Assembly: GCA_022729235.1 (NCBI GenBank)
Contig: JALDAJ010000001.1
Span: 704,001-768,000, forward strand
Length of the DNA: 64,000 bases
Direction of reading: 5' to 3'
From: Candidatus Nanohalarchaeota archaeon
Lineage (GTDB): Archaea > Nanohalarchaeota > Nanosalinia > Nanosalinales > Nanosalinaceae
Shown here in pieces: positions 22,878 through 25,528 of this stretch. The notes beneath the pieces are model-generated. The model was not told the DNA's origin. It did not search any database and saw only the letters and a program-made list of their open reading frames with translations. The position numbers and the translations under genes are program-made. Numbering within the stretch: position 1 is the first letter of the stretch; each line of letters starts with the position of its first letter.

Positions 22878-23324
22878 ATGCCTGATAGTAGACTCTTGAA
22901 AGAACTCGATATCTCTCCGGCTGAACTGGCTGAGATGACAGAAAGCGAATATCGGAACACTCTTCTTAGACATGATTATCCTTTAACCGAGCCTGTAATA
23001 GTATCTGTTGAGGACTCTATAGCAAGGGAAAGAGAGAAGCTTGAAAGTTTTTGTGCGCCGTATTCAGGTGCGGAAAAATGGCTTTGGATAGGTGAAGAGA
23101 TACTTCCTCGCTGGGCAGAAGTTCTCTCCGAACTCGATGAAAGAGTAAATTACGCGGATTCAAGTGGACTAGAGACAGAATACAAAGGAGTATTGTCCCC
23201 GCGGCTCAAGAAGGCTACAGGACTGATGAAGCGTCTGGAGGCAAATCCGGTAGACTATGATATATCGGAGTTTGTGGATAGACTCCGTGGAATGGAAAAC
23301 ACATATGAAAGGAAATTAAAGTAG
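22878..23324 (+). CDS. Hypothetical protein
   Basis: 148 aa ORF, ATG start, acidic. Confidence 0.6.
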   Translation: MPDSRLLKELDISPAELAEMTESEYRNTLLRHDYPLTEPVIVSVEDSIAREREKLESFCAPYSGAEKWLWIGEEILPRWAEVLSELDERVNYADSSGLETEYKGVLSPRLKKATGLMKRLEANPVDYDISEFVDRLRGMENTYERKLK

Positions 23325-23351
23325 TTCTGTCTCTACTGAAGGACTTGGAAA

Positions 23352-23487
23352 TGGACCGGCCCAGATTTGAACTGGGGATCTCCACCTGTCTGAATTCCTC
23401 CGCATAGCGGAGATTTCAGATAATAGAAGCTGGTTAAGGCTTCGAGTCTATCAGGGTGGTGCTATAACCAAGCTAAGCCACCGGTCC
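23352..23487 (-). tRNA. tRNA-Ile (GAT) with 61 nt intron at 37/38 (23388-23448)
   Basis: GGACCGG/CCGGTCC acceptor; CCACC-CTGATA|intron|A-GGTGG; BHB helix CTGA/TCAG. Confidence 0.92.
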
Positions 23488-23582
23488 GTGCTAGCTAGTA
23501 ATAGTTGAATGCTTGGAAAGTATTTTTAATGCATTGGCAGAGAGTCCGTGATTTTTATTTGAGGATTTAAAATACTGTTTCT

Positions 23583-24053
23583 GTGGGACTTGAAGAATTA
23601 GAAGAAGATATCAGGCAACTTGAGCAGGATCTTGAAAGTCTTGTTCCCCAGAAGAAGGCAGCTTCGGCTAAACTGTTTCTAGATCAGTTCATGCCTCTCG
23701 CTATACTGATGCTAACTTTGATGATTGCCTTCCATATTTTCATCCCAGTAAGCGATAGCATGGCTGTCGCTGTCAGCTACATGAACGTGGCTATCCTGTT
23801 CTTCTTCAGCGCCCGGTTCACGCTTGCTTTCATGCTGGCGGATTCGCATAAAGGATTCCTCCGTGAACACTGGTTTGACGCGCTGCTTGTTCTACCAGCT
23901 TTTGCATTAGTCAAGGATATACGTCTGCTGCTTGCCCTAGAGTCCAGGACAGAGGAACGCGCTGTTATAGGCACTATTTTCGCGAGGAATACGACGGTTG
24001 CCAGCCAGTTAACCAAGATAATTACCTGGATCAGAAGAATTCTCAGGTTCTAA
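23583..24053 (+). CDS. Membrane protein resembling an ion-channel S1-S4 module
   Basis: Several TM helices; FLREHWFDALLVLP S3-like motif. Confidence 0.6.
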   Translation: MGLEELEEDIRQLEQDLESLVPQKKAASAKLFLDQFMPLAILMLTLMIAFHIFIPVSDSMAVAVSYMNVAILFFFSARFTLAFMLADSHKGFLREHWFDALLVLPAFALVKDIRLLLALESRTEERAVIGTIFARNTTVASQLTKIITWIRRILRF

Positions 24054-24064
24054 AAACATATCTC

Positions 24065-24234
24065 TGATATGGGTCCAACGGGATTTGAGACGAAAACAAG
24101 TTTTCTTAGTCAAATCACGTTTAACCAGCACGAAGTGATGGGCCCAACGGGATTTGAATTCGAAGAAGCAAGTTCTTCTGCAATCAAATCCCGGGAGAAA
24201 GCATATCTTTGATATGGGCCCAACGGGATTTGAA
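24065..24234. repeat. Tandem array of tRNA-Lys 3'-end copies (two extra units) with hairpin inserts
   Basis: tgat(at)ggg(t/c)ccaacgggatttga at about 24065, 24136 and 24210. Confidence 0.9.
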
Positions 24235-24349
24235 CCCGCGACGCCCGGCTTTCTTTGAAGCTTGGCTGACGCCTTGCTTCTAGGTCCTCGTCCCTTGCGG
24301 GACTTGAGGCTTAAAAGGCCGGTGCTCTGCCAGACTGAGCTATGGGCCC
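24215..24349 (-). tRNA. tRNA-Lys (TTT) with 61 nt intron at 37/38 (24251-24311)
   Basis: GGGCCCA/TGGGCCC acceptor; CCGGC-CTTTTA|intron|A-GCCGG; BHB helix CTTT/AAAG. Confidence 0.92.
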
Positions 24350-24402
24350 ATGCGTATGGGTAATTGTTGTAGAATACCTGAGGTTTTTATACTGTCCGCC
24401 GA

Positions 24403-24618
24403 TTACACGGTTTCCTGTTCGAAGTCGCCGTACTGGATGTTCTGTATCGCGTGGTACGGGATGAACATGTGTTCGGACTGCACTTCCTGTACAAGTTCTT
24501 CTTCGTTGAATATCCAGGGGTTTTCGATTTCCACTCCGTTATCTACTCTATCTACCTGGTCTTCGTCTTCCAGGAGGAAGTCTCCGGCATCTGTTAGAAC
24601 TATGGCTGAGAATTTCAT
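24403..24618 (-). CDS. Small hypothetical protein (Sm-like fold possible)
   Basis: 71 aa, co-oriented after rpl37e; FIPYHAIQNI. Confidence 0.65.
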   Translation of the reverse strand: MKFSAIVLTDAGDFLLEDEDQVDRVDNGVEIENPWIFNEEELVQEVQSEHMFIPYHAIQNIQYGDFEQETV

Positions 24619-24627
24619 GTCGGATAT

Positions 24628-24780
24628 TTACGGCGATGCTTCGTCGAAGTCCTCACGTTTGGAGGTCTTCCCGAATCCGCAGGATGCGCACACTTTCTTT
24701 GTGAGGTGGTATGCTTTCTTTCCGCAGCGTCTGCATTTGCCGTGGGTTTTCTTGTTTCCGACTCCAAGTTCTGATGCCAT
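24628..24780 (-). CDS. rpl37e: 50S ribosomal protein L37e (not in ORF track)
   Basis: [28 protein letters not shown]; follows lsm as usual in archaea. Confidence 0.95.
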
Positions 24781-24799
24781 TGTTAGTCACCTGTGAGGT

Positions 24800-25033
24800 T
24801 TATTCCGGGCTGACCACGATGACATTGTCTCCACGTACAAGCAGCTTACCGTAGTCTGTTCTGCCGTCATCGTTGTTCCTTGAGGCGTTTTCAAGCCACA
24901 TGTTGAGGTGGAGGTCGAAAGCTCTGAGTTTTCCTGTAACTGTTGAACCGTCCTTGAGTTCTGCTATTACTTGGTCGCCTTTCGCCCTGTCTAGGACGTC
25001 TAGTGGTCTTGTACCGTCATCGTTGTTTCCCAT
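24800..25033 (-). CDS. lsm: Sm-like archaeal protein
   Basis: RPLDVL, GKLRAFDLHLN, VRGDNV. Confidence 0.95.
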   Translation of the reverse strand: MGNNDDGTRPLDVLDRAKGDQVIAELKDGSTVTGKLRAFDLHLNMWLENASRNNDDGRTDYGKLLVRGDNVIVVSPE

Positions 25034-25150
25034 AGAAAATACACCTGTATCCTCGGTTTCCGGAACAACTTATATAAACCTACTGAGAGTCCTCGAGAGA
25101 GGAGGGTGGGCGAGCGACTTTTTATAAAGTTTAGAGGTGATTCACGGTTT

Positions 25151-25528
25151 ATGGCAATCTGGCACAGACGCTCATACATGAAGAAGACTGGTGGAAGTAC
25201 TAGACCTTATAGAAAGTCTCGTAAATACGATCTCGGGTCTGAGTTCTCGGAACCTGAGGTAGGCGAGAAACGTGTAGAGCAGAGACGTGTCCGTGGTGGA
25301 AACCAGAAGAATGTTGTCAGGCGTTCGGAGACTGTGAATCTTGCTGTTGATGGAGAAGTAGAGCAGGTTGAAATCGAGTCTGTGGAAGACAATCCTGCGA
25401 ACCCGAACTATGTGAGACGTTCGCTTTTGACTAAAGGAACGATAGTTGAGACAGAGGAAGGTCGCGCAGAAATTACTTCTAGACCGGGTCAGGACGGAGT
25501 TGTAAATGCGAGACTGACTGACGAATAG
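25151..25528 (+). CDS. rps8e: 30S ribosomal protein S8e
   Basis: RVRGGN, NPANPNYVRR..TKG, TSRPGQDGVVNA. Confidence 0.97.
   Translation: MAIWHRRSYMKKTGGSTRPYRKSRKYDLGSEFSEPEVGEKRVEQRRVRGGNQKNVVRRSETVNLAVDGEVEQVEIESVEDNPANPNYVRRSLLTKGTIVETEEGRAEITSRPGQDGVVNARLTDE

Follow-up and report, generated by a model that had tools for sequence, protein, structure and literature searches.

Hairpin cassettes with target-matched antisense arms between duplicated tRNA 3' ends in Nanohalarchaeota genomes

The window analyzed in this study is a 64,000-nt stretch (C1:704001-768000) of the single-contig 1.03-Mb genome of a Candidatus Nanohalarchaeota archaeon (hereafter G000), and its proteins are acidic and of archaeal type. 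On the minus strand, it contains a tRNA-Lys(UUU) gene that was detected by ARAGORN only with the intron option and was missed without it. The exons alone gave a cloverleaf fold with an acceptor stem probability of 0.97, and the CCA end is not encoded. The intron carries a hairpin module that is likewise present in the introns of the Gln, Leu, Arg, and Thr genes. Genes for the splicing endonuclease and RtcB are present in the genome; RtcB is a 966-aa frame (G000:C1:586267-588984, minus) that was matched in two pieces and probably contains an intein. Behind the tRNA-Lys gene lie two inserts, each followed by a further copy of the tRNA 3' end (Table 1), with start-to-start distances of 76 and 69 nt between the copies. 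A preliminary description of this DNA had reported an array of three copies of a repeat of approximately 24 bp. All three sequences are present, with one mismatch in the last, but the copy placed near 24210 is the gene's own 3' end; the extra copies therefore number two, and the core of the repeat is 19 nt, corresponding to tRNA positions 55-73. On the other side of the array, the stop codon of a 156-aa membrane protein (23583-24053, plus strand) with a weak ion-transport match (E 0.003) adjoins the array end, and a tRNA-Ile gene with an intron but without a copy (echo) of its own end lies at 23352-23487.

Table 1. Features of the tRNA-Lys(UUU) locus. Positions are those of the window; D, tRNA-end copy; T, turn hairpin; I, antisense arm; H, foot hairpin.
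Feature	Position	Strand	Basis
tRNA-Lys(UUU) gene, the target	24349-24215	minus	Rfam RF00005, 55.4 bits; ARAGORN with introns
Intron, 61 nt at 37/38, two hairpins	24251-24311	minus	ARAGORN, Rfam
Second intron hairpin, variant of the AGAA..TTC hairpin family	24256-24281	minus	
D0, positions 55-73 (T55-A73) of the working tRNA; copy 3 of the preliminary description	24215-24233	minus	
Insert 1, 57 nt (T1 + I1 + H1)	24158-24214	minus	
T1, small turn hairpin directly after the discriminator, lengthened by pairing with C72-A73	24202-24214	minus	
I1, antisense arm, pairs with positions 55-64 of D0 or D1	24184-24195	minus	
H1, AGAA..TTCG family hairpin	24161-24179	minus	
D1, exact copy of tRNA positions 55-73	24139-24157	minus	
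Insert 2, 50 nt (T2 + I2 + H2)	24089-24138	minus	
I2, antisense arm, pairs with 55-61, 63-66, and 71-73; unpaired at 62 and opposite 67-70	24110-24127	minus	
H2, shorter AGAA..TTCG family hairpin	24091-24106	minus	
D2, copy of positions 55-73 with one substitution	24070-24088	minus	Orthologue comparisons
T3, same small hairpin as T1, then five T	24052-24069	minus	

The inserts share one anatomy: a turn hairpin follows A73, then an arm antisense to the T-arm, and then a hairpin with an AGAA..TTCG foot. The arms can pair with the preceding or the following tRNA-end copy, and all four antisense/repeat hairpins at the locus beat 196-200 of 200 shuffled sequences (z -2.4 to -4.0). The two spacers had been quoted correctly, letter for letter, in the preliminary description, and its remark that they fold back on the repeat was borne out, each spacer holding an inverted T-loop copy. 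The small palindrome that it had seen overlapping the first and third copies was found to follow them, at 24057-24069 and 24202-24214. It had also argued against a simple tandem duplication and for separate insertion events. In agreement with this, the two inserts are 60% alike, and both have closer relatives at other loci: insert 1 is 82% identical to the insert behind the tRNA-Trp gene of the same genome (63-68% for the best of the shuffled sequences), and insert 2 shares 83% identity with the sole insert behind the tRNA-Lys(UUU) gene of G007 (L009), with related types behind the Lys genes of L002, L010, L011, L014, and L026. The hairpin type of T1 occurs in nine units of at least seven isotypes with six different T-stem strands, most of them with a matching arm, where a unit is a cassette plus one copy of the tRNA end. 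T1-like hairpins followed by further hairpins, with neither arm nor copy, were also seen behind the Lys genes L188, L194, L195, and L197, which lack an echo. D2 is probably the displaced original gene end, and T3 may be the native trailer or terminator or the stump of a third insert. As T1 and T3 are the same hairpin, either insertion may have come first.

A search of window positions 23000-25500 against Rfam gave tRNA matches only, none of them over the trailer, and no bulge-helix-bulge joining D0 and D1 was seen by eye on the predicted folds. One sequencing-run contig, possibly from the source of this DNA, covers the array without differences. No excision joint across the array was found in the sequencing-run contigs of one study; the joints listed in the sequencing runs fall in the intron and originate from tRNA genes of other organisms.

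The layout is not confined to tRNA-Lys; equal units lie behind many other tRNA genes. In G000, an echo of the gene's own positions 63-73 together with an antisense arm was found at 12 of the 34 tRNA genes (38 ARAGORN calls minus four without a T-loop), compared with 0.5% of random sites. The end-arm-copy pattern matched 40 of the 70 genomes of the phylum and its reversed control none, and a variant for tRNAs with G57 matched 15 of 70, again with no control match; a few of the matches were not at tRNAs or were the same unit on the other strand. The matched regions were parsed into 105 units, eight mis-parsed or antisense rows were dropped, and the G57 set was then added. The final collection comprised 123 units in 36 of the 70 genomes, with 83 distinct tRNA ends and 34 ARAGORN isotype labels, all found by patterns requiring both arm and copy and in related genomes that are not independent; p-values calculated from it are overstated because the genomes are kin. 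The inserts have a median length of 57 nt and a near-constant size of 46-62 nt, and arrays reach at most four copies.

Occurrence is patchy. When the regions downstream of tRNA-Lys(UUU) were compared among relatives, as the preliminary description had proposed, 7 of the 24 other loci carried a unit, two of these decayed. Of the 13 loci obtained by scanning metagenomes for close Lys genes, none had an echo, and none was sufficiently close to allow an empty/filled comparison. In the species collection, the cassette pattern with a tRNA echo was found in records titled Nanohaloarchaea, Asbonarchaeaceae, or uncultured archaeon. Very similar arm-plus-hairpin cassettes were also seen in L231, L233, and L248, from records titled Nanoarchaeota, Methanosarcinales, and an archaeon; only that of L248 lies behind a tRNA, with no copy within 45 nt. 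Behind the same Gly or Lys gene, the cassettes of congeners can differ (Gly, L015/L069; L029/L201). The Gly loci are homologous beyond the last copy, an indication that this copy is the original end in displaced form, and the trailer of the Lys gene of G023, which has no echo, resembles the sequence after the copy in G007. Whole tRNA-plus-unit blocks appear to have been copied between paralogues (Ser-GGA/Ser-UGA; L075/L076). In the last 100 bases of one contig (L257, also L102), a unit begins behind tRNA-Pro and ends in a tRNA-Arg 3' end with its own unit, reflecting either a chimeric assembly via the common cassette or a real recombination between tRNA loci. In another (L199:2650-3900, G044:C43), a three-copy Lys(CUU) array is directly followed by a broken tyrosine-integrase gene.

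Within the units, the arm and the duplicated end vary with the local tRNA. The downstream copy was identical to the local tRNA at positions 61-73 in 73 of 97 units and differed in 24, under a unit selection that allowed three mismatches in the copy. Copy identity was 0.95-1.0 up to N73 and 0.30-0.54 from position 74 on, and on the 5' side it was at chance by position 50; the boundary of the copy is sharp at the discriminator base. CCA was not encoded after either copy in any of the 123 units. In the 25 units with differing copies, the gene-proximal copy paired better than the downstream copy with the 5' strand of the tRNA in 18, equally well in seven, and worse in none, and on this ground we regard the proximal copy as the working end and the others as decaying. 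In L059 (G010:C96, minus), the downstream copy keeps an apparently older acceptor strand, the usual Phe end, and the working tRNA has changed both strands; at tRNA-Gly(UCC) of G000 (822641-822712), the downstream copy is closer to the Gly end of relatives, and the working tRNA has again changed both strands. These two echoes look like fossils of tRNA evolution.

The base of the arm opposite N57 covaried with the target: A57:T was found in 79 units, G57:C in 19, A57:C in one, and G57:T in none (n = 99). Both N57 classes occur in 11 genomes, and G57 occurs in 12 isotype labels; a rule that only A57 tRNAs are targeted, seen in G000, was dropped because G57 units with a matching arm exist. The covariation could also reflect maintenance of the hairpin that the arm forms with the downstream copy, or the evolution of orthologous units along with their tRNA, as in the Val units of G031 and G035. 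The copy extends back past N58, N57 being cognate in 87 of 90 units. Arm pairing was above that of shuffled controls at 62-66 and below it at 67 and 69 (n = 81), with a patterned bulge at 61/62 and an avoidance of 67-70. At 63-66, the arms match the target modestly (mean 2.19 of 4 vs 1.74), and nonmatching arms exist: those of L014, L167, and L179 are noncognate, and the arm of insert 1 pairs no further than position 64. For the turn hairpin, cognate pairing with N70-73 did not reach significance (0.40 vs 0.33, p 0.064). The hairpin modules, by contrast with duplicated end and arm, are common to unrelated tRNAs and families: in 61 of 108 units, the H core reached at least 80% similarity to that of a unit with another tRNA end, as against 0 of 108 for shuffled sequences, and near-identical 45-nt cores occur across families whose flanks do not align.

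The spacers had been described as unique; both in fact belong to one hairpin family with at least 59 copies in the genome. In its strict form, the H hairpin was counted 59 times, mostly in intergenic regions, compared with 5-11 in Markov controls. Among the 16 flank combinations, enrichment was confined to AGAA..TTCG and its reverse complement, with a polarity eightfold over chance; a loose hairpin definition was not above chance (170 vs 145-166). H sites include tRNA introns, positions beside rRNA genes, and the starts of ribosomal-protein and RNA-polymerase genes, and H also occurs as inverted doublets that break up downstream copies. In a slightly looser set of 75 family hairpins, 15 were preceded by a duplicate of 10 nt or more of the sequence that follows H (random, 3%). 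These duplications include echoes of tRNA 5' ends with the cassette on the antisense strand (Tyr, Thr-GGU, Ser-UGA, and, by eye, Leu-GAG) and one of the end of a chaperonin-like protein gene. Because echoes also occur antisense and at a protein-gene end, a DNA-level process is favored over a function in the pre-tRNA.

Several further observations are worth recording. At G000:C1:217406, 217859, 487334, 487883, and 605427, hairpin cassettes lie between ATG and GTG at the starts of ribosomal-protein or RNA-polymerase genes, with a ribosome-binding-like GGTGA within the hairpin. Nearly the same two-hairpin module was seen at G000:C1:263230-263310 and 268010-268090, by eye behind an apparent 23S rRNA end and inside an apparent RNase P RNA. 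On the minus strand of G000:C1:158740-159700, a 0.85-kb island separates tRNA-Pro(UGG) from a long displaced copy of its 3' part, which is split in the T-loop by a hairpin doublet; the island has two small ORFs that by eye resemble a nucleotidyltransferase/HEPN toxin-antitoxin pair and no integrase. At the loci L022, L023, L025, L026, L028, L029, and L030, from related families, the Lys(UUU) introns are 70-215 nt long and carry an anticodon-loop antisense beside box C/D-like motifs, which suggests that they are cis guide introns.

We also searched for an enzyme that could move the cassettes and for an outside source. The Y1 transposase (PF01797) was absent from G000 and present in 1 of 41 genomes; the RAYT model NF047646 had no match in G000, and an HUH-motif scan gave no candidate. 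Cas1 was found in 3 of 70 genomes and GIY-YIG in 13 of 70, neither of them in G000; the IS110 DEDD recombinase was found in none of 70, and reverse transcriptase was absent from G000 and found in 7 of 70, all unit-poor. Tyrosine recombinases occur in 43 of 70 genomes, with two in G000, but their count is unrelated to the unit count (rho -0.02). Among these enzyme families, in genomes many of which are incomplete, no mobilizer was found; the candidates were rejected or unsupported, as their absence or distribution does not fit. A 137-aa GIY-YIG-like ORF lies directly behind tRNA-Lys(UUU) in L012/L151 (G011), and G001, G018, and G058 have similar weak GIY-YIG matches of 128-136 aa. The insert ends are not inverted repeats, although the arm/T-loop pair can be read as such (the IS families searched were IS200 and IS110). 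Viral contigs gave no match for the hairpin and one match for the cassette pattern, with neither tRNA nor echo, that was judged to be chance. A search of the spacers against phage and plasmid records, suggested in the preliminary description, likewise gave no match, BLASTN returning only fragments with E values of 0.5-7.

We consider it probable, at roughly 60%, that the array arose when a non-autonomous mobile hairpin cassette of 50-60 nt, which acts at the DNA level and duplicates its target, inserted twice in succession into the T-loop region of the tRNA-Lys gene. Such a cassette would move as folded single-stranded DNA, and its antisense arm would act as a guide by pairing with the T-arm strand of the target. 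This pairing would set the sites of two staggered cuts, or of a cut-and-prime step, at the T-loop and after N73, and fill-in would duplicate the tRNA end from about 55 to 73. Each new tRNA-end copy would be a fresh target, so that arrays could build up, and an insertion would survive only if it restored a tRNA end or a start codon or created an intron that can be spliced. The enzyme may be host-encoded and phylum-wide or supplied by a passing element. No clean empty/filled pair of close strains was found, which counts against a mobile cassette. We also put forward a speculative extension that we regard as doubtful: the unit might be an integrated single-stranded dumbbell circle of 60-85 nt capped by two hairpins, whose arm would serve as an in-cis guide, reading 7-12 bases of the target strand, setting both ends of the duplication, and being rewritten or reselected at a new tRNA, and the same traffic might be the source of the lineage's tRNA introns. 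Circularized units folded as rods in 85 of 89 cases with RNA parameters (shuffles, 73%) and in 80 of 89 with DNA parameters (shuffles, 40%), with a median z of -3.3, in a unit selection that itself favors rods.

The layout could also have arisen without any dedicated mobilizer, by template switching during replication or repair. A nascent 3' end or flap would fold back on the trailer hairpin, copy the tRNA end in reverse, jump via the universal T-loop microhomology to an existing unit, whose hairpin core it would copy, and return to the T-loop; palindrome correction and gene conversion would keep arm and copies matched. Duplications by flap fold-back are known in FEN1-deficient yeast. The direct-inverted-direct layout with hairpin turns, the target-matched arm, the lack of any enzyme that correlates with the units, and the blocks apparently copied between paralogues would all be expected from such events. 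However, the arm is no plain copy, given its patterned bulge and its avoidance of 67-70, the turn hairpins and the near-identical 45-nt cores recur at unrelated tRNAs and in families with non-aligning flanks, and the fixed AGAA..TTCG polarity suggests recognition by a protein; we judge this explanation unlikely. Selection by the host for a trailer RNA appears quite improbable. The arm would then pair with the T-arm first and be captured by the downstream copy afterward, serving as a folding or processing switch, as a cis guide for T-arm modification, or, in line with the small RNA suggested in the preliminary description, as the source of a 70-nt small RNA. The boundary lies exactly at the RNase Z site N73, N57 covaries, pairing with the acceptor strand is avoided, and in the predicted folds the precursor misfolds once transcribed to the end of I1 and regains its T-stem with the full trailer, all of which a trailer function could explain. 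The same predictions, however, indicate a cost rather than a benefit, as the acceptor 5' strand of the full precursor pairs preferentially with the downstream copy. The units are moreover patchy at Lys(UUU) loci (7 of 24 in relatives, 0 of 13 in metagenomes), their downstream copies decay and are broken by further hairpin doublets, the same architecture stands antisense before tRNAs and at protein genes, and Rfam matches the tRNA only.

Two explanations involve known integrases. The copies might be attL/attR scars of tyrosine-integrase elements whose cargo was deleted, since a duplication from the T-loop to the 3' end is the usual mark of such elements in the excerpts of PMC4383910, G000 has two tyrosine recombinases, and an integrase pseudogene follows the Lys(CUU) array in G044. 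Such scars would hardly combine one cassette family with 83 different tRNA ends at near-constant size, att sites lack a target-matched antisense arm, and neither the number of integrases nor phage, plasmid, or viral-contig sequences showed a relation to the units; this very improbable explanation is already largely refuted. To the proposal that a Cas1-type integrase duplicated the tRNA end and captured unique spacers, as in a CRISPR or casposon array, we give almost no credence, despite the repeat-spacer layout and despite a casposase that takes the T-loop of a tRNA gene as its leader and makes a 15-bp duplication (PMC5137440, in part). The spacers are one family, neither unique nor foreign, and Cas1 is missing here, so that CRISPR-like capture of foreign DNA is excluded; the casposase duplication, as given in the same excerpt, overlaps the tRNA by only 5 bp and omits the T-loop, whereas here positions 55-73 are covered. 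A SINE-like, tRNA-primed retroelement was likewise rejected, given the absence of reverse transcriptase from G000, the lack of CCA after the copies, and the extension of the copy past N58.

The tRNA-Lys locus is one ordinary member of the cassette family. If the mobile-cassette explanation is correct, a 57-nt element that restores the gene end has entered one-third of the tRNA genes in this reduced archaeal genome, as well as many others in the phylum. The target-matched arm is a hint of an undescribed mode of target finding by small DNA; were it a true guide, nano-sized archaea would own an insertion enzyme programmable by a few single-stranded bases, and the dumbbell form, if real, would be a minimal base-pair-programmed insertion system. 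Since tRNA introns and gene junctions are built from this hairpin family, it provides a testable path to intron gain in archaea. Intron transposition is known in the Thermoproteales. On a small scale, the arrays also parallel the proposed growth of repeat-spacer arrays out of duplicated targets at the ends of tRNA genes. Even if only template switching is at work, the mutational signature is striking.

The attC sites of integrons and the folded attP of CTX phage are imperfect single-strand hairpins in which one base is extrahelical and the central stretch is unpaired. The duplex of arm and copy resembles them in its bulge at 61/62 and its 4-5-nt loop opposite 67-70, but the cassettes have no attC core motif and no cargo. 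The trailer repeats of E. coli tyrT/tyrV are near-identical 178-bp tandem copies at one locus type, each with a tRNA 3' part. Like these repeats, the cassettes form tandem trailer units with a tRNA end, but they are heterogeneous, dispersed, and equipped with an antisense arm. No description of this cassette appeared among the papers listed by the literature searches, which covered neither subscription journals nor bioRxiv supplements. The five expressed ncRNAs of a cultured nanohaloarchaeon in table S3 of PMC10266531, compared by eye, were not these units.

According to the excerpts of PMC4383910, tRNA islands of tyrosine integrases have a regenerated gene and a displaced 3' fragment, form tandem arrays, and can also involve 5' fragments. 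The cassettes leave this footprint of a regenerated tRNA and a displaced 3' fragment (PMC4383910 and PMC8371274, in part), but the islands are kilobases long, with an integrase and a fixed, tRNA-specific attP, whereas the units have approximately 57 nt, no ORF, and at least 83 tRNA ends. As in casposon and CRISPR arrays, growth would proceed by target duplication beside the tRNA T-loop (PMC5137440, in part); unlike in these, there is no Cas1, the spacers are related, and the duplication includes the T-loop. The cassettes differ from IS110 bridge-RNA elements in the absence of a DEDD recombinase (0 of 70 genomes). REP, BIME, and REPIN sequences are described in the excerpts of PMC3116915 as short extragenic hairpins, single or in inverted doublets, probably handled as single-stranded DNA. 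The cassette family is likewise made up of many short hairpins outside genes, some in inverted doublets, but unlike the REP/RAYT system it has no RAYT/Y1 gene and no fixed GTAG foot, and it duplicates 17-20 nt of the end of an essential gene with a matched arm. MITEs, Yersinia YPAL/RU-2, and Rickettsia RPE are, like the cassettes, gene-less, shorter than 200 bp, hairpin-forming, and dispersed; YPAL makes target duplications of 3-26 bp at or next to dyad symmetry, and RPE enters RNA genes (PMC2229807, in part). The cassettes share target site duplication with MITEs, but unlike all three they have only 50-60 nt, no TA ends, and no fixed terminal repeats in the insert, and part of their sequence is the antisense of the local target and varies with it. 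Compared with small non-autonomous palindromic elements, this target-matched antisense arm is the unusual trait of the cassettes.
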